DNA of 64,000 nucleotides from an uncultured Clostridium sp. (GCA_900553985.1 USFW01000003.1:31492-95491); one strand, 5' to 3'; shown: positions 10,213-51,188, counted from the stretch's first letter. Notes: generated from the letters alone by a model not told the origin. Program-made: numbers and translations.

Positions 10213-10344
10213 AAAATCTCCTTTCTTTCATTATATTAATACAAGTATATAAATAATAAAAAAAATATGCAATAATTTTGAAAAAAATATATGATAATAT
10301 TTTAAGATTAGTTCACAATAAAATAATATTTAGAAGTTATTTAA

Positions 10345-10620
10345 TTACTGGATAATGGTTTTAAAAATTAACCGCTGAAAATAGTTGATAATTATAATTT
10401 TTTTAGATTTTGACTACTTATTTCATTCAGAAAGAATTGGTAAGGCTTCCTAATGAGCCTCTCTCACTCAGACCCTTTCATACTTCAAGTACCGTGAGCA
10501 TTCCTCATTAGAAAGCCTAACCAATTCTAATCTTCATTCCAGTCGAACATCAAAATCTAAAAAAATTATAATTATTAACTATTTCCAGCTTCTCTACAAT
10601 AAAAACTATTATCATGTAAC
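10345..10620 (+). repeat. foldback element, copy 1 (family of four in this window)
   Basis: Whole-length imperfect hairpin centred near 10481. Outer arms are 10374-10414 and 10549-10589. The GC-enriched core is shared almost exactly with 24358-24635 and 50905-51175. Confidence 0.9.
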
Positions 10621-10730
10621 GTTATTTATATTAATTTTAAAAAATATATTGACAAAGATTTAAAAAAGTTATAATATTAAATCAATATATGAACATATAA
10701 TCATACAATTATATAAAAGGAGAAAAAATA

Positions 10731-11084
10731 ATGGATGAAAATTTATGTGAAATTACTATAATTCATGAAGATGTAGTAAAAAAAGTGAAGAAAATAATGC
10801 CAGAAGATGATGAAATATATGACTTAGCAGAGTTTTTCAAAGTATTTGCAGATTCTACAAGGATGAAAATAATATATGCTTTAATGGAAAATGAGTTATG
10901 CGTATGTGATTTAGCAAATATAGTAAATACAACTCAATCAGCAATCTCACATCAACTAAAAATATTAAGGCAATCAAAATTAGTTAAATTTAGAAAAGAA
11001 GGAAAAGTAGTATATTATAGCTTAGATGATGAACATATAAGCCAAATAGTAAAGAAAGGTCGTGAACATATTGAAGAGTTATAG
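10731..11084 (+). CDS. ArsR/SmtB-family metalloregulator (CadC-like)
   Basis: ELCVCDL metal-sensing motif and a winged HTH (QSAISHQLKILRQSKLV). Overlaps a downstream P1B-ATPase gene. Confidence 0.85.
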   Translation: MDENLCEITIIHEDVVKKVKKIMPEDDEIYDLAEFFKVFADSTRMKIIYALMENELCVCDLANIVNTTQSAISHQLKILRQSKLVKFRKEGKVVYYSLDDEHISQIVKKGREHIEEL

Positions 11085-24271: not shown

Positions 24272-24297
24272 GAAATATAGAATAATATATAAAATGA

Positions 24298-24340
24298 AGA
24301 CTGTCATAAATATAGGAATATATTTATAGGCAGTCTTTAA
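24298..24340 (+). terminator. intrinsic terminator
   Basis: AAGACTG..ATAAATA / TATTTAT..CAGTCTT stem followed by TTT. Confidence 0.6.
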
Positions 24341-24357
24341 TGATTTTAAAAAAATAA

Positions 24358-24635
24358 GTTACTGGGTAATGTTTTTTAAATTAGTCGCTGTGAATAGGTG
24401 ATACTTATAACTTTTTTTAATTTTTGACTACTTATTCCATTCAGAAAGAATTGGTAAGGCTTTCTAATGAGCCTCTCTCACTCAGACCCTTTCATACTTC
24501 AAGTACCGTGAGCATTCCTCATTAGAAAGCCTAACCAATTCTAATCTTCATTCCAGGCGAACGTCAAAAATTAAAAAAAGTTATAAGTATCACCCATTCA
24601 CAGCTTTTCTATAATAAAAATTGTTATACTATAAT
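24358..24635 (+). repeat. foldback element, copy 2
   Basis: Same core as copy 1. The outer arms differ from copy 1 at about 8 positions, but the two arms still match each other at 41 of 42 positions. Confidence 0.9.
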
Positions 24636-24751
24636 GAAAAAAATTGAAAAATTTTCTTAAATTCTACAAATTTAGCATAAAAATGGTGTATAATATAAAA
24701 GTAATGTACTTAAAAATATAATCAAAAAACAAAATAGAAAGAGGAATTATT

Positions 24752-36112: not shown

Positions 36113-36826
36113 ATGGAGAATGCATCAAAAGCATTAATAATAGCAGGTAGTGTGTTATTAGCACTAATAGTAATTGGTGCATTCATGTTAATGTTATCGA
36201 ATCTTACTGATTATAAGGATAAAAATGATACAAGAGTACAACAACAACAAATAGTCGAATTTAATAATCAATTTTCAACATATGATAGAATAGGTCTAAG
36301 AGGAACTGATATGCTATCTTTAATGAATAGAATAATAGACTATAATGTAAGAAAAACAGCAGAAGAAGTAGGTTTTCAAAAGATGAAAATGACTATAAAG
36401 GGAATTGATAAAAATATACTACAAGCAGTGAGATATGAGCCATCAGGACCAAACTTATTAATAAAGAAAAATGCTTATACGCAAGAAGATTTATCAGAAA
36501 TAGTAACAAAACCTCAAAATTTAGAAAATAAATATCAGAAAAAATATATTACACAATTAGTAAGTAACGTTTCATCTTTTATGGATATTTATAGCAGTAG
36601 TTTATCAATAAATCAAAAGATACAAGAAATAAATGATAAAAAATGGTTGCCCAAAAGTATAACAACATATGGGAGCTTAGATAGTGTGAAAAATGACATT
36701 TTAATATATTATGAGTATTCACAATTTAAGAGAACATACTTTGATTCTACAGGAGAGACTAAATATGATAAAAATACAGGAAGAATTACGGAAATGAATT
36801 TTAATTGTGTAGGAATAGGAGAGTAA
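36113..36826 (+). CDS. pilin-like protein, MENASKAL class (237 aa)
   Basis: N-terminus MENASKALIIAGSVLLALIVIGAFMLMLS. One of four paralogous N-termini in the locus. Confidence 0.6.
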   Translation: MENASKALIIAGSVLLALIVIGAFMLMLSNLTDYKDKNDTRVQQQQIVEFNNQFSTYDRIGLRGTDMLSLMNRIIDYNVRKTAEEVGFQKMKMTIKGIDKNILQAVRYEPSGPNLLIKKNAYTQEDLSEIVTKPQNLENKYQKKYITQLVSNVSSFMDIYSSSLSINQKIQEINDKKWLPKSITTYGSLDSVKNDILIYYEYSQFKRTYFDSTGETKYDKNTGRITEMNFNCVGIGE

Positions 36827-36827
36827 T

Positions 36828-37316
36828 ATGGAGAATGCATCAAAAGCATTATTAATGGCAGCAGGCGTACTAATTGGGGTATTGATATTATCTTTAGCAG
36901 TATTTTTATTTGTGAATTTTGGAGGAACATCAGCTAGGATACATGATACAGTACAAAAAAACCAATTAGCTAAATTTAATACACAATTCACTAATTATGA
37001 AACAAAAGAAAGTGTAACAATTTATGATATTGTTTCAGTAGCTAATTTAGCAACTGAAAATAATAGAGAAAATCAATTACAAAAGAAAACAGCATCAACT
37101 AATGGAATAGATAATTATATAACTGTAAAATTAAAAGGAAGATGTATAGAAGGTGGAGAAAACACAGATATAAAGCAACTAGAGGATGATTATAATAAAA
37201 AAATAATAGAAGATATCAATAGACAAAATAATGGAGAATTAAAAAAATATAAAGCAAAGACATATGTAAGTACAGAAACGGGCAGAGTTTATTTAATAGA
37301 ATTTAGTGAAATTTAA
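36828..37316 (+). CDS. pilin-like protein, MENASKAL class (162 aa)
   Basis: N-terminus MENASKALLMAAGVLIGVLILSLAVFLFV. Confidence 0.6.
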   Translation: MENASKALLMAAGVLIGVLILSLAVFLFVNFGGTSARIHDTVQKNQLAKFNTQFTNYETKESVTIYDIVSVANLATENNRENQLQKKTASTNGIDNYITVKLKGRCIEGGENTDIKQLEDDYNKKIIEDINRQNNGELKKYKAKTYVSTETGRVYLIEFSEI

Positions 37317-37357
37317 TAAAAAAATTTTATATATGGAATATATTAGACAGGTGAAAA

Positions 37358-37789
37358 ATGAAGAAATTTATAATTTTTTTAGTAGTTATTTTAATGATAA
37401 TTGCAACAATATCATATCTTTATTTGAATTATAAAGCTAATTACAACATAGCCCAAAAAGAAAATTTTCAATTTGAAAGTTACTATAATCAAGAAATATT
37501 TGGACCAGATGTTGCAACTGTAATAAATAAAGCAATTGATAAAAATTCAAACAACAATATAAAGAAAGATAATAAAGGCAATTACATAGAAGATAATACT
37601 AATTCGATAAAAATAGATATAAAATTTATAGATGATGATAAAATACACAACATGGAAGAAATCTTTAACAAAGGTATAGGCACATTTATGCAATATTATA
37701 GCCAGATAAAATTCAAATGCACAAAAATTGATTATCATAAATCTAGTAAAAAAGTTAAATATATGTTATTTGAACAAATAACAAAATAA
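37358..37789 (+). CDS. small N-terminally anchored protein of the pilus locus
   Basis: MKKFIIFLVVILMIIATISYLYL anchor followed by a polar domain. Confidence 0.5.
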   Translation: MKKFIIFLVVILMIIATISYLYLNYKANYNIAQKENFQFESYYNQEIFGPDVATVINKAIDKNSNNNIKKDNKGNYIEDNTNSIKIDIKFIDDDKIHNMEEIFNKGIGTFMQYYSQIKFKCTKIDYHKSSKKVKYMLFEQITK

Positions 37790-37859
37790 TAAAGTTATTT
37801 AAGTTACTAAAGAAATTTAGTATATATAGCAAAAGTAAAATTTAAAGGAGGAATTTTTT

Positions 37860-38282
37860 ATGGAAAATGCATCAAAAGCATTAATTATTGCAGGAGCAAT
37901 ACTATTAGCAATTTTAATTATAACATTAGGAATTGTAATTTACAATCAAGCACAAGGAGTAGTAAATAATAGTTCGATGAATCAAGTTGAAGTAACACAA
38001 TTTAATACACAATTTACACAATATGAAGGTAAACAAAGAGGTTCAGTTGTAAAATCTCTATTCCAAACAGTATTAGCAAATAATGTATCACAAGATAGTG
38101 AGGATAGACAAGTTAAAATTGAATGTACAGTAACAGGAAATTTAGAAAAAAATGCTACATCATTACCTGCAAATATGTCAAAAATAGCAACAGGTGCATC
38201 ATATGAAATAAGTATTAAATATGGTACAGGTAAAGGTAATGCTGGATTGGTTGATGTAATTACAGTTGCACCAGCAAATTAA
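37860..38282 (+). CDS. pilin-like protein, MENASKAL class (140 aa); major subunit candidate
   Basis: N-terminus MENASKALIIAGAILLAILIITLGIVIY. Strongest SD in the locus (AAAGGAGGA), preceded by a 70-nt spacer, and the smallest globular domain. Confidence 0.6.
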   Translation: MENASKALIIAGAILLAILIITLGIVIYNQAQGVVNNSSMNQVEVTQFNTQFTQYEGKQRGSVVKSLFQTVLANNVSQDSEDRQVKIECTVTGNLEKNATSLPANMSKIATGASYEISIKYGTGKGNAGLVDVITVAPAN

Positions 38283-38308
38283 AAAGTACAAAGAAAGGAT
38301 GATATATT

Positions 38309-38950
38309 ATGGAAAATGCAGCAGACGCATTAAAAATGGCAGCAGCCGTATTAGCTTTTGTTCTAGCATTAGGAATTAGTATGTCATCTTTTTCCGAAGT
38401 TAGAGAAGTTTCTGAAATAATTTTAAATTATAAAGACAAAGAATATAATTACAATTATATTCCAGAAAATGGAGATACTACTAGAAAAGTAAGTGTAGAG
38501 ACAATAGTTCAAGCAATTTATAGAGCGTACAATGAAAATTATAAAATTTATTTTTATGAAAATGGTAATGAATCAGACCCATTAACTATATTTCAAAAAG
38601 GAACAAATCAAAAAGAAGAAATTAATTATATTGATTTAAGAGGACAAGCACTAGTAAGTGTTGAAAAGAGAAATCAGTTTATAGGTTGCATTTTATATGG
38701 AAGTTCATATAGAGATCCTAATGGAAAATCATTTAATGATATAAAAAATGAATTTAAAGAACTAGGAATTATATTGCAAGATCAAGGATTATATGATAAA
38801 ATATTAAGTAGTGGAGGAGCTGAAGAAAAATTTGGAGTGTATTATGAAGATGATGAGATAGTAGATAACTCAAATCCAGATGATTCTGAATCAAACGTAC
38901 CACAAGCAAACAGAGTAAAGAAAAGGGTTATTACATATATTTTGCAATAA
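38309..38950 (+). CDS. pilin-like protein, MENAADAL variant (213 aa)
   Basis: N-terminus MENAADALKMAAAVLAFVLALGISM. Confidence 0.55.
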   Translation: MENAADALKMAAAVLAFVLALGISMSSFSEVREVSEIILNYKDKEYNYNYIPENGDTTRKVSVETIVQAIYRAYNENYKIYFYENGNESDPLTIFQKGTNQKEEINYIDLRGQALVSVEKRNQFIGCILYGSSYRDPNGKSFNDIKNEFKELGIILQDQGLYDKILSSGGAEEKFGVYYEDDEIVDNSNPDDSESNVPQANRVKKRVITYILQ

Positions 38951-41360: not shown

Positions 41361-42591
41361 ATGCAAAAGAAAACAAAATCTTTAATATTATTGACTTTTT
41401 TAATTATAATATACATGTATACATTAGTGATAACATCAATACCAGGTAAAATGGTAGTATTTGAGGGAGAAGAAATAAACATAAAAACATTATTAGGACT
41501 GAATTTAATGGAAAAAAACGATAGCATGGAAGTATCATCAAATGTAAATAATCAGAAAATAAATGAAGTAGGAGTAAAAAAGCTTACATTAAATTTGTTT
41601 GAAAAATTACCATTAAAATCCATAAATGTATCAGTATTGCCAAGAACTAAAGTAATACCGGTTGGAAACATTGCAGGAGTAAAACTATATACAAGTGGAG
41701 TTTTGGTGGTAGGAATGTCTGAAATAGAAGGGAAAGATAATAAAATATATAAGCCATATGAAAATACAGGAATAAAAGAAGGAGATACAATAACTAAAAT
41801 AAATAATAAATATATATCTTCAACTGATGATCTAATAGATAATGTAAATAAATCAAATGGAGATACAATTGAAGTAACATATATTCAAAATGAACAAACA
41901 AAAGAATGTAGTATAACCCCAGTAAAAACTGATGAAGATGAATATAAAATTGGACTTTGGGTAAGAGATAGTGCAGCAGGAGTGGGAACAGTAACATTTT
42001 ATGAACCTGATACAAAAACATTTGGAGCACTAGGACATGGGATAGCAGATATAGATACAGGTGAGTTATTAAATATAGCATCAGGAGAGTTTGTAACGAC
42101 TAGAGTTTTAAATATAACAAAAGGAGAAAAAGGAAATCCAGGGAAAATTCAGGGAACAATTGAAAATCAACAAACAATAGGAGAAATATCAAAAAATACA
42201 GGTTTTGGGATATATGGCAAAGTAGATAATATATCAAGTTTAGATATAGATGCATCCAAAGAAATGGAAGTAGCATTAAGAGATGAAATAAAATTAGGAA
42301 AGGCAAAGATACTATGTAACTTAGATAATAAAAATGTACAAGAGTATGAAATAGAAATAAAGAAAATATATAAGGAAAATAATTATAATAACAAAAGCAT
42401 GGAAATAGAAATAACAGATGAAAGGCTAATAAACAAAACAGGAGGAATAATACAAGGAATGAGCCGGATCACCAATAATTCAAAATGGAAAATTTGTAGG
42501 TGCAGTAACACATGTATTAGTTAATAATCCAAAAGAAGGATATGCTGTGTTTGGAGATTTAATGCTAAAACAAACAAAAGAAATAAAATGA
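41361..42591 (+). pseudogene. spoIVB: SpoIVB peptidase (S55) interrupted by a 1-nt frameshift at the catalytic-Ser motif
   Basis: PDZ plus S55 domains. The frame breaks after GGIIQGMS (extra C at 42464/42465 in AGCCGGA). The +1 frame continues [34 protein letters not shown] to the TGA at 42589-42591. This matches the conserved GMSGSPI...GAVTHV region. Confidence 0.85.
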
Positions 42592-42706
42592 TTTTGGGGT
42601 CGGAGACAAAAATCATGTAAGAATTTGAAAAAGATAATAATAATAAATTTTTAAATAAAAAATGGGGTATCAGAGATGCTGATTTTTGTCTCCGACCCCA
42701 AAATCA
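42589..42706. repeat. 27-bp perfect inverted repeat between convergent spoIVB and murC
   Basis: TGATTTTGGGGTCGGAGACAAAAATCA occupies 42589-42615. Its exact reverse complement occupies 42680-42706. Loop of 64 nt. The arms abut both stop codons. Confidence 0.9.
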
Positions 42707-44089
42707 TTATTTAATTAACAGAGTTCCAATATCAGTCACAGTACCAGCTCCTAAAGTCATAACAATATCATTTTCTTTAACATTATCTTTAATATACTTT
42801 ACACATTCGTCAAAATCAGGAATATATAAAGCTTTTTTACCAAGAGAATTAATTTTATCAACTAAATCTTTAGAAGATATACCATAAGTATTAGTTTCTC
42901 TTGCTGCATAGATATCTAAAACAATAATATTATCAAAATTTAGTAAAGCTTTTGCAAAATCATTTAATAAATTTTTTGTTCTGCTATAAGTATGAGGTTG
43001 GAAAATAACCCAAGACTTATTATATTTTTTATTCATTAAAGATTTAGCTGTTGCAATAATTTCAGTAGGATGATGACCATAATCATCATATACACTTGCT
43101 ATTCCATTTACTTTTCCTTTAAATTCAAATCTTCTATGAGCACCAGTGAATTTTAATAATCCTTTTTTAATAGATTGATTATCAATACCATATGCATTGC
43201 AAAGAGCAATACAAGCCAAAGCATTTAAAACATTGTGCATTCCAGGAACCGATAACTTAATTCTTTCAAAAAATTCATCATTATGATATACATCAAATTC
43301 AGCAAAACCATCATTGTCAAAAACAATATTTACAGCAAAGAAATTTGTATTTTTATTAGTAATACCATAAGTAACAACTTTTGAAGAGGTATATTGACGT
43401 AAATCTAAACAATTATTATCATCACCATTTAAAATTAGTAGACCATCATCAGGTAGGAGTTTTACATATTTTACAAAAGCATTTTTTATGTTTTCAAAAG
43501 TTTTGAAATAATCTAAATGGTCATTATCAATATTTAAAATAATTTCAGCTTTAGGGAGGAATTTTAGGAAACTTTCAACATATTCACAAGCTTCAATTAT
43601 AAAATACTCACTATTTCCTACTCTATAATTACCATCAAGTTGTTTTAAATAAGCACCAACTTGAATACTAGGGTCTTTCATAGCTTCAACAAAGCAAAGA
43701 GAAATCATAGAAGTAGTAGTTGTTTTTCCATGAGTACCAGAAACACAAATAGTATCTTTATAACATTTTGTTAGTTCTCCTAAAAAATCAGCTCTTTCAA
43801 TAGTTGGAATATTATTTTCCTTAGCAATTACCATTTCAGGATCATCTTGCCTAATTGCAGCAGAATAAACAACTACATCTGAATTTTTAACATCTTCACT
43901 ATTATGTCCAATAGTTACTTTAATTCCTTTTTTAGTTAAAGTTTCAACAGTTTCAGAATTATAACAATCAGAACCAGTAATGTTAAAGCCCCAATTAAGT
44001 AAAATTTCAGCAATTCCACTCATACTAACCCCACCGATTCCAATCATATGTATATTTTTATATTTTTTTATATTATCTATATTAGGCAT
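42707..44089 (-). CDS. murC: UDP-N-acetylmuramate--L-alanine ligase
   Basis: IHMIGIGGVSMSGIAEIL Rossmann N-terminus and GTHGKTTTTSM P-loop. Mur ligase middle and C-terminal domains. Confidence 0.95.
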   Translation of the reverse strand: MPNIDNIKKYKNIHMIGIGGVSMSGIAEILLNWGFNITGSDCYNSETVETLTKKGIKVTIGHNSEDVKNSDVVVYSAAIRQDDPEMVIAKENNIPTIERADFLGELTKCYKDTICVSGTHGKTTTTSMISLCFVEAMKDPSIQVGAYLKQLDGNYRVGNSEYFIIEACEYVESFLKFLPKAEIILNIDNDHLDYFKTFENIKNAFVKYVKLLPDDGLLILNGDDNNCLDLRQYTSSKVVTYGITNKNTNFFAVNIVFDNDGFAEFDVYHNDEFFERIKLSVPGMHNVLNALACIALCNAYGIDNQSIKKGLLKFTGAHRRFEFKGKVNGIASVYDDYGHHPTEIIATAKSLMNKKYNKSWVIFQPHTYSRTKNLLNDFAKALLNFDNIIVLDIYAARETNTYGISSKDLVDKINSLGKKALYIPDFDECVKYIKDNVKENDIVMTLGAGTVTDIGTLLIK

Positions 44090-44266
44090 TAATCAACACT
44101 CCTTTTTAACAGATAGATTATACAATTTTATATGTAAAAATTCAATAGTTTAAAGGAAATTTCATTATATTGTATGTTATAAAATTTTATAAGTTACAAT
44201 TTTTAGTTTATCTATAATAAAATAGTTACATAGTAACAAATAAAATTTAAAAAATTGTAAAAAAAA

Positions 44267-44653: not shown

Positions 44654-44693
44654 AACTGTCCTAAAATAAATATATTTATAGGACAGTTTTTTT
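44654..44693 (+). terminator. spoVG terminator
   Basis: AAACTGTCCTA / TAGGACAGTTT stem and a T-run. Confidence 0.7.
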
Positions 44694-44851
44694 GATCTAA
44701 TTTTCTTAGTTTTAAGTAATATAAATATAATTTTAAGTTATGTAAATGTTTTTTACTATAAAAGACTTGAAAAAAAGGCAAAAAACAGGTAAAATATAAA
44801 GGAATTTCAATAAAGAGATAAATTAAAAATTTAATAAAGGAATGATTTTAA

Positions 44852-45409: not shown

Positions 45410-45537
45410 AACATTTGTATAAAAAGAAAATAGAAATTTAACAATGTCAATGTAAATTATATTTCATTTAGATATAAAAAATGGTTTATAGGTAAAGCCA
45501 ATAAAAAAACCTAAATATATTATACAAGGAAAATAAA

Positions 45538-46725: not shown

Positions 46726-46895
46726 AAATATACAAAATAGATTTAATATATAAAAGAATACTTATTTTATATGGTGTTCTGGTATATGTAAAAGCAGATA
46801 GTTATTATGATAATGCTATATAAAGACAAAGAAAATAAATTTCAAAATAGAGTTTGATTATATTTGTGCAAAAAGAGAAAGGAATTAAAGTAAAA

Positions 46896-48263
46896 ATGAA
46901 CGTAGGTTTTATATCTTTAGGATGTAGTAAAAATTTAATAGATACAGAAGCAACAATTGGTATTTTTAAAGAACATAAATTTAATATAGTAAATGATGAA
47001 GAAAAAGCAGATATTTTAGTAATAAATACATGTGGTTTTATAGAATCAGCTAAAGAAGAAGCAATAAATACAATATTAGAAATGGCAGAATATAAAAATA
47101 AAAGATGTAAATATTTAATTGTAATGGGGTGTCTAGTACAAAGATATTATGAGGAATTGATAAAAGCAATTCCAGAAGTAGACTTGTTCTTGAAAATTGA
47201 TGAATATGATGAAATTTGGGAAAAGATAGAAGATTTAATAAAAAGAGATATTGTTCAAAAATCAAAAAAGAAAACAAGTAAGAAAATTTCTGAAATTCCT
47301 GCAATGCCAATGTTGAAACAAGAAGAATTTTTGAATAGGGTTATAACAACAGGTAAAAATTTTGCATATTTAAAAATAGGTGAAGGCTGTAGTAATAGAT
47401 GTACATATTGTGCAATTCCATATATTAGAGGTCCATTTATAAGTAGAAAAATGGAAGATATTTTAGAAGAGGCAAAAGGTTTAGCGAAAAATGGAATTAG
47501 AGAATTAATTGTAATAGCACAAGATACAACTAAATATGGAGAAGATATATATGGTGAAACAAAACTTGCTGAGTTATTACAAGAATTATCAAAAATAGAA
47601 GAAATAAAATGGATTAGATTTTTGTATTCTTATCCTGAAGGAATTACAGATGAGTTGATAGATGTTGTGGCAAGCAATTCTAAAATAGCAAAGTATTTTG
47701 ATATACCAATTCAACATATTTCAAACGATGTGCTTAAAAAAATGAATAGGAGAACTAATAAGGAACAGATAACTGGTTTGATAGAAAAAATAAGAAGTAA
47801 AATACCAGATGTGACTTTAAGGACGAGTTTAATTGTGGGATTTCCTGGGGAAACAGAGCAAAACTTTAAAGAATTACAAGAGTTCATAAAATTTGCTAGA
47901 TTTGATAAATTAGGTGCTTTTATGTATTCAAGGGAAGAGGGAACTCCTGCTGAGAAATTACCAAATCAAGTGCATGGGAATACAAAGAAGGCTAGATATA
48001 ATAGAATTATGCAAGAACAAAAGGAGATTTCAATATGTAACCAAGAGAAAAAGCTTGGAAAGAAACTTTCTGTTTTGGTAGAGGATATGTCTTTTGATGC
48101 TAATTATTTTGTTGGTAGAAGTTTTCAAGATGTTCCAGAGATAGATGGTGTTGTGTATATTAAGAATGAGGGGAATAGGAAACTTGAGGAAGTTTTGAAT
48201 AATTTTGTTGAGTGTGAAGTGGTAGAAGTTAGTGAGTATGATTTAATTGCAAAATTTATTTAA
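46896..48263 (+). CDS. rimO: ribosomal protein S12 methylthiotransferase RimO
   Basis: UPF0004 N-terminus (ISLGCSKNLIDTE), radical SAM CSNRCTYC and a TRAM C-terminus. Confidence 0.85.
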   Translation: MNVGFISLGCSKNLIDTEATIGIFKEHKFNIVNDEEKADILVINTCGFIESAKEEAINTILEMAEYKNKRCKYLIVMGCLVQRYYEELIKAIPEVDLFLKIDEYDEIWEKIEDLIKRDIVQKSKKKTSKKISEIPAMPMLKQEEFLNRVITTGKNFAYLKIGEGCSNRCTYCAIPYIRGPFISRKMEDILEEAKGLAKNGIRELIVIAQDTTKYGEDIYGETKLAELLQELSKIEEIKWIRFLYSYPEGITDELIDVVASNSKIAKYFDIPIQHISNDVLKKMNRRTNKEQITGLIEKIRSKIPDVTLRTSLIVGFPGETEQNFKELQEFIKFARFDKLGAFMYSREEGTPAEKLPNQVHGNTKKARYNRIMQEQKEISICNQEKKLGKKLSVLVEDMSFDANYFVGRSFQDVPEIDGVVYIKNEGNRKLEEVLNNFVECEVVEVSEYDLIAKFI

Positions 48264-48285
48264 GTGTGGTGCTTTTGAGGGGAAC

Positions 48286-48525
48286 GTTAAAATATAGCCG
48301 TTAGAAACTAGTAGTATAAATAATTTTTTTATATTAACGGCTTCTTTCATAATTTAAGAAATTCTATTGCAAAATTTTTGGTGCCCTTTCTGTGTTGGTC
48401 TCTTTTTGGAAAAGCGACCACACGAACATTACCCCAAAATTTTGCAAAGATTTTCTAAAATTATTCCAGTCACACATTAATATAAAAAAATTATTTACAC
48501 TACTACTTTCTAACTACTCTACAGT
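48286..48525 (+). repeat. foldback element, divergent fourth member
   Basis: Nested inverted repeats 48300-48338 / 48476-48514, 48351-48381 / 48433-48461 and 48391-48399 / 48415-48423, centred near 48407. Flanks and internal loops are homologous to copies 1-3, but the core differs. Confidence 0.85.
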
Positions 48526-48578
48526 GTTGAAAAAGTGCATTTTTTATGATTTAATATTGGAAGGATGGATGATGTGAT

Positions 48579-49592
48579 ATGAAGAAGAGAATTTTGACAG
48601 GTGATAGACCAACGGGAAGATTGCATATTGGACATTATTTTGGGTCTTTGAAGAAGAGGGTTGAGATGCAAAATAGTGGTGAGTATGATATGTATATTTT
48701 GATTGCTGATGTTCAAGCTTTGACTGATAATTTTAATAATCCAGAGAAGGTTAGAAATAATGTGAGACAACTTGCTATGGATTATTTGGCTTGTGGTATT
48801 GACCCTAGTAAAACTACTATATATATACAGTCTATGATACCTGAGACTGCTGAGCTTACTGTTTATTATTCTAATTTGGTTTCAATTGCAAGATTGGAGA
48901 GAAATCCAACTGTTAAGACTGAAATTGCTCAGAAAAGAGAGGTTTTCGGCGAGAGTGTTACTTATGGATTTTTAGGATATCCAGTTAGTCAAGCAGCTGA
49001 TATAACAACTTTTGAAGGTGAGTTAGTTCCAGCAGGAGAAGATCAAGAGCCTTTAATAGAACAAGCAAGAGAGATTGTTAGAAAATTTAATAGTATTTAT
49101 GGAGATGTTTTAGTTGAACCTAAAATTGTATTGTCAGAAGGTAAAAGAATAAAAGGCCTTGATGGTAATGAAAAGATGGGTAAATCTTTAGGAAATGCTA
49201 TTTATTTATCTGATACTGAAGAAGAAATTACAAAAAAAGTTATGAGTGCTGTAACAGACCCTAATAGAATAAAAAAAGATGATTTAGGAAATCCTGATAT
49301 ATGTATGGTTGCATATTATCATAATCTATTTACAGATTCAGAAGATGTGAAAAAAATATGTGAAGAATGTAGAGCTGGAAAAAGAGGTTGTGTTGCTTGC
49401 AAAAAACAATTGGCGAAAAATATAATTGAGTATTTAAGACCGATAAGAGAAAAAAGAAAATATTATGAAGAGAATATAGAACTTGTAGATGAGATCCTTA
49501 AAGAGGGAACTGAAAAAGCAAGAAAGACAGCGAAGGAAACAATGAAGAAAGTAAAGAGTGCTATGAAATTAGATTATTTTGATGAAATATAA
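48579..49592 (+). CDS. trpS: tryptophanyl-tRNA synthetase
   Basis: HIGH motif (GRLHIGHYFG), KMSKS variant KMGKS, and length 337 aa. Confidence 0.95.
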   Translation: MKKRILTGDRPTGRLHIGHYFGSLKKRVEMQNSGEYDMYILIADVQALTDNFNNPEKVRNNVRQLAMDYLACGIDPSKTTIYIQSMIPETAELTVYYSNLVSIARLERNPTVKTEIAQKREVFGESVTYGFLGYPVSQAADITTFEGELVPAGEDQEPLIEQAREIVRKFNSIYGDVLVEPKIVLSEGKRIKGLDGNEKMGKSLGNAIYLSDTEEEITKKVMSAVTDPNRIKKDDLGNPDICMVAYYHNLFTDSEDVKKICEECRAGKRGCVACKKQLAKNIIEYLRPIREKRKYYEENIELVDEILKEGTEKARKTAKETMKKVKSAMKLDYFDEI

Positions 49593-50887: not shown

Positions 50888-50904
50888 CATATAAATTTTT
50901 GTTG

Positions 50905-51175
50905 TAATAGATATAGCTTTTACAAATTAACCGCTGAAAATAGTTGATAATTATAATTTTTTGGGCTTTTGACTACTTATTTCATTCAGAAAGAATTGGT
51001 AAGGCTTCCTCATGAGCCTCTCTCACTCAGACCCCTTCATACTTCAGGTACCATGAGCATTCCTCATTCGAAAGCCTAACCAATTCTAATCTTCATTCCA
51101 TGCGAACGTCAAAATCCAAAAAATTATAATTATCAACTATTTTCAGCTACTTTATAATAAAAGATTTTTAGTAAT
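50905..51175 (+). repeat. foldback element, copy 3
   Basis: Same core as copies 1 and 2, with five substitutions. Outer arms 50933-50973 / 51108-51147. Begins 18 nt after the obg stop codon. Confidence 0.9.
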
Positions 51176-51188
51176 TTTACAATATGAG

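Follow-up and report, generated by a model that had tools for sequence, protein, structure and literature searches.

The spacer between rimO and trpS in a 64,000-nucleotide stretch of DNA from an uncultured Clostridium sp. (GCA_900553985.1 USFW01000003.1:31492-95491; the whole stretch is referred to as the window) is largely occupied by a hairpin, copy 4 of a foldback repeat family. This hairpin is a mobile non-coding insertion that varies between strains, rather than a fixed RNA gene. With a probability that we put at about 0.8, copy 4 is the body of a 258-bp non-autonomous foldback element that resembles MITEs (miniature inverted-repeat transposable elements; defined in PMC3184786 and PMC3049150) and is related to family A, represented in the window by copies 1–3. 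The characteristics of MITEs found here are a length below ~400 bp, the lack of a transposase gene, a constant 8-bp duplication, presence or absence according to strain and, for family A, dispersed copies; terminal inverted repeats, a further characteristic, are present in family A and absent from copy 4. The spacer is to be annotated as carrying a strain-variable mobile insertion, and as neither a conserved trpS regulator nor a rimO terminator.

Comparison of closely related strains provided the evidence for insertion. The spacer is delimited by the rimO stop codon at 48263 and the trpS start at 48579 and is 315 bp long in the window; the Pfam domains of its neighbours (UPF0004, Radical_SAM and TRAM_2 for rimO, tRNA-synt_1b for trpS) are consistent with the gene names. 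An exact look-up of the TrpS protein gave ten strains (L001–L010), which were compared at this site. Three of them (L001, L005 and L006) have the same 315-bp spacer as the window, and in the other seven (L002, L003, L004 and L007–L010) it measures 49 bp, the DNA around it being 98–99% identical between empty and filled strains. Copy 4 was additionally found in L062 and L063. The empty site reads ...TAAGTGTGGTGCTTTTTTTATGATT..., contains GTGCTTTT once and forms no hairpin. The best-fitting deletion is exactly 266 bp, and excising 266 bp from the window restores the empty site. The junction has no unique position (all from 48269 to 48277 fit), because an octamer is duplicated (GTGCTTTT on the left, 48269..48276, and GTGCATTT, with one substitution, on the right, 48535..48542; no strand applies to either). 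When empty and filled sites are compared by BLAST, the alignments overlap by 8 nt. Thus, the extra 266 bp is made up of a 258-bp element (48277-48534), inserted 5 nt 3′ of the rimO stop codon, and an 8-bp target-site duplication. The initial annotation had delimited a unit at 48286-48525, which covers the hairpin and misses 9 nt at each end as well as the duplication, and had taken its features to speak against a simple repeat. The element is in fact a mobile repeat, absent from seven strains, bordered by an 8-bp duplication and with relatives in unrelated contexts.

In Firmicutes, trpS might have a T-box leader upstream of it. We considered such a leader, or a terminator, as the content of the spacer and rejected both: there is no Rfam match and no terminator site, and the empty spacer has no hairpin. 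Searching the whole window against Rfam 15 at gathering thresholds returned two tRNAs only, and permissive thresholds applied to copy 4 and copy 1 gave weak matches to generic hairpins (a plant miRNA precursor at 39.6 bits, with 249 required). No terminator-like site, that is, a short G+C-rich stem followed by a T run, occurs on either strand in 48200–48620 or, around copy 1, in 10250–10750. The proposal that the element replaces a conventional terminator after rimO finds no support on these grounds, for both the empty and the filled site.

Copy 4, which we call ‘B type’ (48277..48534, + strand), is a single long interrupted foldback without coding capacity; the only open reading frame (ORF) that touches it is a 61-codon frame extending out into the trpS leader. 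Three nested inverted repeats had been described in the spacer, and all of them were confirmed. The arms of the outer one (48293-48337 and 48477-48521) are 89% complementary, those of the inner one lie at 48349-48382 and 48431-48464, and the third pairs GTGTTGGTC (48392-48400) with GACCACAC (48416-48423). Measured against 200 dinucleotide shuffles, the RNA fold of the + strand (-75.6 kcal/mol) has a z-score of -10.3 and that of the - strand (-95.9 kcal/mol) one of -13.2; as single-stranded DNA the z-scores are -9.1 and -13.0, respectively. The - strand fold is lower in energy because additional pairs form within the loops.

Family A, as seen when copies are aligned together with their flanks, is a 277-bp element with terminal inverted repeats (GTTACTGGATAATGG / CCATTATCCWGTAAC) and 8-bp duplications. 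Its architecture, from the ends inwards, consists of a 19-bp terminal helix that is the terminal inverted repeat (GTTACTGGATAATGGTTTT / AAAACCATTATCCWGTAAC), an 11×11 outer internal loop (AAAWTARCC / TWCTCTACAAT), an outer helix of ~40 bp, a 13×16 inner internal loop (CTACTTATTYCAT / TCATTYCANNCGAAC), an inner helix of ~30 bp and an apex of 46 nt; the end motifs are GTTACTGGATAATGG...AAATTARCCG and CTCTACAAT...CCATTATCCWGTAAC. An exact 21-mer of copies 1–3 retrieved 30 loci in four species of uncultured Clostridia represented by metagenome-assembled genomes (MAGs). A pattern made of the loop motifs added seven family-A copies from metagenomes, together with seven chance matches and no new subfamily, and had zero matches in viral contigs. 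In total, family A numbers more than 40 copies in the four Clostridia MAG species and metagenomes. The host is a spore-former with ~25% G+C and contigs of up to 1.75 Mb; the foldback repeat family is a previously undescribed one, residing in a common uncultured lineage of gut Clostridia with small genomes (~1.5–1.75 Mb).

Copies 1–3 of the window all have the same orientation (+). Copy 1 (10344..10620, 277 bp, termini ATTACTGGATAATGG...CTATTATCATGTAAC) is flanked by a perfect 8-bp duplication, GTTATTTA, at 10336-43 and 10621-28, and copy 2 (24356..24636) by AAAAAAAT at 24348-55 and 24637-44. The ends of copy 3 (50903..51178) are approximate, its termini being decayed and its duplication not clear. 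Perfect octamer duplications were found not only for copies 1 and 2 but also for those in L023 (CAAAATAT), L027 (AAAAAGTT) and L016 (ATTTGTGT), and octamer repeats matching at 7 of 8 positions for those in L040, L046 and L037; the repeats lie immediately outside the family-A termini, at a constant distance from the loops. Copy 2 is fixed, in that 7 of 7 further strains carry it and none of them has an empty site. When the copy-2 spacer, which separates a glycosyltransferase gene from era (24272-24751), was compared with L055–L061, all five variable sites among the eight strains fell within copy 2 and none in ~200 nt of unique flank; the cause is either a raised mutation rate of the palindrome or, in the metagenome assemblies, cross-talk among repeat copies.

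Several copies are incomplete. In L002–L004 the interior of copy 3 between the outer-helix arms is deleted, leaving a 42-nt hairpin (L002 12350-12400). A right-end remnant, TTTTTAGTTTATCTATAATAAAATAG, is present in the window at 44195..44230 (+) as a stub only, and at the same site L002 and L003 have a larger family-A copy from which the left arm is deleted (L002 5698-5841). L021 carries a truncated left half (2405-2498). This series of interior loss, left-arm loss, right-end stub and truncated left half suggests palindrome-driven deletions. A copy found at one locus in two species (L012 6395-6690 and L029 5065-5360) has a long non-complementary left end (TTGAGATGAATTG...) and, at the right end, an A run 6 nt past the loop, after which comes an octamer repeat matching at 7 of 8 positions (ACAGGTGT / ACAGGTTT). 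Its asymmetric layout is that of copy 4, whose left end, taken with the preceding T, reads TGAGGGGAA and agrees with TGAGATGAA at 7 of 9 positions.

Copy 4 aligns end to end with copies 1–3, and the distances between the shared strings are 42/43, 108/110 and 45/47 nt. A profile built from family A and copy 4 matched copy 4 at E 1e-35 and no other copy-4-like sequence in the fetched DNA. We then compared each segment of copy 4 with the family-A consensus, using 500 shuffles per segment; all segments are given on the + strand. The left terminal segment (GAGGGGAACGTT, 48277..48288) is not complementary to the right end and resembles the family-A terminus at chance level; it is unpaired in the RNA and plus-strand DNA folds, and in the DNA fold of the - strand just a few bases at its end are paired. 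In the outer internal loop, the left strand (AAAATATAGCC, 48289..48299) agrees with the consensus AAAAATTAGCC at 9 of 11 positions, which 14 of 500 shuffles reach, and the right strand (TACTCTACAGT, 48515..48525) with TACTCTACAAT at 10 of 11 (1/500). The arms of the outer helix, 48300..48337 and 48477..48514, pair with each other and are 75% (0/500) and 72% (4/500) identical to family A. The inner internal loop has a left strand (CGGCTTCTTTCAT, 48338..48350) matching CTACTTATTTCAT at 10 of 13 positions (4/500) and a right strand (ATTCCAGTCACACA, 48463..48476) matching family A at 11 of 16 (15/500). Both arms of the inner helix (48351..48381, paired with 48434..48462) show chance-level identity, the apex with its third small helix (48382..48433) is unrelated to family A, and the right terminal segment (GTTGAAAAA, 48526..48534) ends as an A run immediately 5′ of the duplication. 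A 12-nt identity, ATTGCAAAATTT, exists between the 3′ end of rimO (48245-48256) and the left arm of the inner helix (48366-48377); by a rough estimate ~0.1 such match is expected by chance, and it may mean nothing.

Six segments of copy 4 thus exceed their shuffled controls, namely the four loop strands (69–91%) and the two outer-helix arms, and the termini, inner helix and apex remain at chance level. Loop strands are more similar between family A and copy 4 than the core (40 of 51 versus 63 of 113 positions, Fisher p 0.005). On sequence, copy 4 is a rearranged relative of family A that kept the sub-terminal arms and differs in its palindromic core and non-inverted termini.

The initial annotation was therefore right to regard copy 4 as a true divergent relative of copies 1–3, as the profile score and the segment tests attest, and it requires revision in how the parts are described. 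Its left and right ‘flanks’ are the two strands of the 11×11 internal loop, which in the full-length family lies inside the further 19-bp terminal helix. The paired sequences, reported as unrelated to copies 1–3, are so in the inner helix and apex, but the outer helix is homologous. The strings quoted as shared do occur in copy 1; the match is mainly to that copy, and across the family they vary. Among 32 distinct family-A copies, ATTCCAGTC is found exactly in 10, CTTATTTCAT in 17 and CTCTACA in 25, with 13 variants of the right inner-loop strand and 18 of the left strand of the outer loop. The loops are thus not invariant, a result that had been named in advance as counting against the proposal, and this holds in part only; the arms as a whole are clearly homologous. 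‘Conserved loops with swapped helices’ is an overstatement: copy 4 and family A have homologous outer helices, loop sequences differ among family members, and the least variable part of family A, the inner helix with the apex, is exactly what copy 4 does not share.

We next examined whether base pairing is maintained, using the 32 family-A copies, 67 pairs and a single alignment (A2), with 500 shuffles and partner slides of 1–3 columns as controls. Standard pairs occupy 98.4% of pair cells, compared with 93.1% in shuffles. Double-sided changes were observed in 21 of the 67 pairs (128 cells), a level reached by none of the 500 shuffles, and slid controls gave 4–6 pairs. Twenty of the 21 double-changed pairs belong to the outer helix; the inner helix shows no covariation because it hardly varies. 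The copies of L012 and L029 are one locus in two species: each arm of the outer helix has five differences, and 5 of 5 are compensated, against 1 difference in ~120 positions of the left flank, 9 in ~110 of the right flank and 2 in ~130 of the core. Since three of the five compensated states are unique to L029 in the alignment, import from another copy is unlikely. Further orthologous pairs show similar compensation. Wobble departures on the + strand are balanced by our tally (17 G.U and 18 A.C cells), which provides no indication that selection acts on one RNA strand and matches a DNA-level process. Thus, of the proposal that copy 4 is a functional structured nucleic acid, the maintained pairing and the preferential sharing of loop strands stand, while selection on one RNA strand finds no sign.

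Two processes may keep the pairing: selection for a folded single strand, or selection-free correction of the quasipalindrome via template switching. According to PMC7202029, template switching during replication can correct imperfect inverted repeats. Such correction resembles what we see, in that mismatches are copied from arm to arm without selection, which fits both the compensation in orthologous copies and the G.U/A.C balance. It differs in being a mutational mechanism with no element family attached, and it leaves unexplained the persistent asymmetric loops and the covariation in apex helices of 3–5 bp. These two features speak against correction as the sole cause; the two small apex helices covary at columns 125/161 (C.G in 26 copies, U.A in 6) and 139/151 (T.A in 16, C.G in 14, A.T in 1). 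The family-A apex (window 10455-10499; A2 columns 115–160) also contains a 14-codon frame, ATGAGC...CCGTGA (MSLSHSDPFILQVP), 3′ of an AAGG motif; its commonest variable sites are at third codon positions, and ACG replaces ATG in two copies. We tried this frame as a micro-ORF and rejected it: the ‘synonymous’ sites 139/151 covary as T.A/C.G/A.T, and a small helix is the simpler reading. For RNA discovery these data advise caution: a mobile DNA palindrome can show both strong base-pair covariation and ‘conserved loops’, which taken alone do not point to an RNA gene, and covariation at orthologous loci may stem either from selection or from one arm correcting the other.

The copies are strongly oriented. 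In 34 of 36, the same element strand lies on the G-rich strand. All 23 listed copies that are flanked by co-directional genes (~17 independent loci when orthologues are merged) are co-oriented with those genes (p ~1e-5, an estimate), and copies in divergent contexts are uninformative in this respect; replication and transcription as causes of the orientation are inseparable in the present data. The genes beside different copies are mutually unrelated, and about half of the copies begin no more than 20 nt past the upstream stop codon. Because copies lie in sense between co-directional genes, the mRNAs probably include them. No promoter signal above shuffles was found. A promoter reading of the loops was tried, with TACAAT/TATAAT in the right outer loop and TTGAC-N16-18-AAGAAT/TAGAAT across the inner loop; these are consensus-level matches that likewise do not exceed shuffles, and they may still be promoter elements.

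How might such an element have spread? In the MITE-like explanation, a transposase making 8-bp staggered cuts would mobilise the family in trans, acting on cis-acting sites that would reside in the shared arms. Complementarity would be kept either by a need of the single strand to fold, be it a transcript or DNA exposed by replication, or by template switching during replication that corrects imperfect palindromes. Once co-transcribed, the interrupted duplex of ~100 bp may affect the processing or stability of the mRNA, as by analogy with Correia, ERIC, BOX/RUP and bcr1 repeats.

A number of observations weigh against this explanation. Neither an autonomous element nor a transposase with matching ends was found in ~600 kb of fetched same-lineage DNA or in plasmid and phage collections. 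BLAST against plasmids and phages gave no relative, the terminal 15-mer matched only the repeats themselves in the fetched loci and had 120 chance matches in viral contigs (0 confirmed by the profile), and a 20-mer from the core of copy 4 had zero matches in viral contigs. The only transposase remnant seen, an IS256-like one in L005, was considered as a partner and set aside, its ends being unrelated. Copy 4 lacks a terminal inverted repeat, since GAGGGGAACGTT and GTTGAAAAA, the two ends, are neither complementary to each other nor similar to those of family A, and it nonetheless bears a clean duplication; its type is present at one locus only in all fetched DNA, as judged by blastn and by nhmmer with the profile of both types. 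The inverted parts vary freely and the non-inverted loop strands are shared, while ordinary transposons conserve protein-bound inverted repeats. At rimO–trpS, the change may be an insertion or a precise loss between the 8-bp repeats. Most copies come from short-read MAG assemblies, in which repeats can be mis-joined.

A less ordinary alternative, which we consider rather doubtful, regards the family as a mobile module of structured nucleic acid, in which a folded strand with two conserved asymmetric loops would be recognised for mobilisation or would act as a host RNA. It rests on helices that drift but stay paired, in resident copies too, on the movement of copy 4 without terminal inverted repeats, on cores that are exchangeable between the same arms, and on the sense orientation of all informative copies. 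If true, it would mean either that mobilisation relies on recognition of a hairpin and still produces a duplication of 8 bp, or that a MITE carries a regulatory RNA on which host selection acts.

A more specific proposal, which we regard as unlikely, is that the element moves via a single-stranded hairpin of DNA or RNA, the enzyme reading the fold and its asymmetric loops rather than double-stranded terminal repeats. Recognition of shape would fit an outer helix that drifts in sequence and almost never in pairing, and also the fact that what family A and copy 4 have in common is the non-inverted loop strands; mobilisation of copy 4 without a terminal inverted repeat, the strong strand bias relative to replication or transcription and the high stability as single-stranded DNA agree with it as well. 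The regular 8-bp duplication, however, points to staggered double-strand cleavage. Single-strand transposition systems (IS200/IS605, RAYT-type) are not known to leave a duplication. Genes of the HUH type or for a reverse transcriptase do not accompany the copies; the reverse transcriptase of L002 and L003, of the diversity-generating retroelement type, is located elsewhere and strain-specific. Compensation occurs in resident orthologous copies and so need not reflect transposition, and the balance of 17 G.U to 18 A.C departures also fails to favour a hairpin stage.

Less probable again is a structured non-coding or cis-regulatory RNA that has spread to several intergenic sites. Covariation that includes the small apex helix, the strict sense orientation between genes and the strong conservation of the family-A core across four species would suit an RNA. 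They have to be set against presence/absence polymorphism with target duplications, the unrelated neighbouring genes, the decayed and truncated copies, the lack of an Rfam family at gathering score, variable loops, a conserved family-A core that is missing from copy 4, and wobble pairs without strand preference. An effect at the RNA level would be compatible with a MITE nature, and we include it in the MITE-like explanation.

Very improbable, to our mind, is a derivative of a single-strand transposon, either a palindrome-associated element of the IS200/IS605 type or a RAYT-moved REPIN. It would share with the foldback family a hairpin-rich, non-coding, intergenic character and a strand bias relative to the direction of replication, but 8-bp target duplications are present, the left end shows no constant 4–5 nt target (the octamers differ), and no TnpA/RAYT or HUH-type gene occurs in the fetched loci of the same species, as judged from their Pfam annotation (loci from MAGs and metagenomes came without annotated genes). 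Finally, the idea that copy 4 is unrelated to copies 1–3, and that AT-rich low-complexity palindromes look alike by chance in a ~25% G+C genome, with an A/T run (ATAATTTTTTTA) as the helix core in common, is ruled out by a block architecture agreeing within 1–2 nt, the profile E-value of 1e-35 and the six segments that exceed shuffles.

Several further features of the region were noted. Intergenic indels are frequent in the species of the window: relative to L002, the spacers at 46761-46815, 44691-44735 and 45413-45467 have differences of 50–120 bp that are unlike the foldback family. Between murC and a convergent spoIVB-like gene, an inverted repeat of 29 bp, AATGATTTTGGGGTCGGAGACAAAAATCA, has perfectly matching arms at 42587-42615 and 42680-42708, separated by 64 nt of AT-rich sequence; it may act as a bidirectional terminator or be one more palindromic insertion of small size. 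Upstream of murC, L002 (1797-3868) and also L003 carry a reverse transcriptase and bAvd pair of the diversity-generating retroelement type with a MutS_I fragment; it is strain-variable, other genes occupying this place in the window strain, and is unassociated with foldback copies. At 36113-38950 of the window lie four paralogous ORFs, one next to the other, with a 71-nt 5′ block in common. The block encodes MENASKALIIAG together with a hydrophobic stretch, and the ORFs resemble a tandem family that encodes pilin-like or secreted proteins.

Among known repeats, Correia elements duplicate TA, compared with 8 bp in the foldback family. Host and probably sequence also set the family apart from both Correia elements of Neisseria and ERIC sequences of enterobacteria; the likeness is one of architecture and likely effect only. 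As described in PMC3049150 and PMC2649163, Correia and ERIC are foldback repeats co-transcribed with their neighbours; their long duplex can be cut or protected by RNases and their ends can create promoters. The present family would probably work in a similar way; the right loop of family A reads TACAAT/TATAAT. Effects of co-transcribed repeats on neighbouring mRNAs are on record for Correia, ERIC and BOX/RUP (PMC3049150 and PMC2649163) and for bcr1 (PMC3184786).

With bacterial MITEs in general (Delihas 2011, PMC3184786; Croucher et al. 2011, PMC3049150) the family has much in common: the elements are small, AT-rich, non-coding, intergenic, multi-copy and strain-variable, they have a target-site duplication, the entire unit folds as a long stem-loop, and family A has terminal inverted repeats. 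It differs in that no cognate insertion sequence was identified here, that 258–277 bp is long for such elements, near the top of their range, that self-complementarity is not confined to the termini and spans the element entirely, as three or four nested helices, and that copy 4 is without terminal inverted repeats. If the unusual features of the family hold, namely shared asymmetric loops, helices that vary freely yet with compensation, a member mobilised without terminal repeats and strict sense orientation, the family would offer a tractable case for transposition recognition beyond terminal repeats and for the shaping of operon mRNAs by palindromic repeats.

In the Bacillus cereus group, the bcr1 repeat (Okstad 2004 and Klevan 2007, as reported in PMC3184786) differs from the foldback family in its size of ~155 bp, its 5-bp duplication and its two-hairpin, cruciform-like fold, as opposed to 258–277 bp, 8 bp and a single nested foldback. 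Transcription has been shown for bcr1 and is a prediction for the present family; no sequence similarity to bcr1 was noted, its consensus not having been compared. In the same source, bcr1 is nevertheless an intergenic mobile repeat of a Firmicute with direct repeats of fixed length, patchy between close strains, in which compensatory changes keep the predicted structure. Judged by analogy, bcr1 is the closest described analogue of the foldback family in behaviour.

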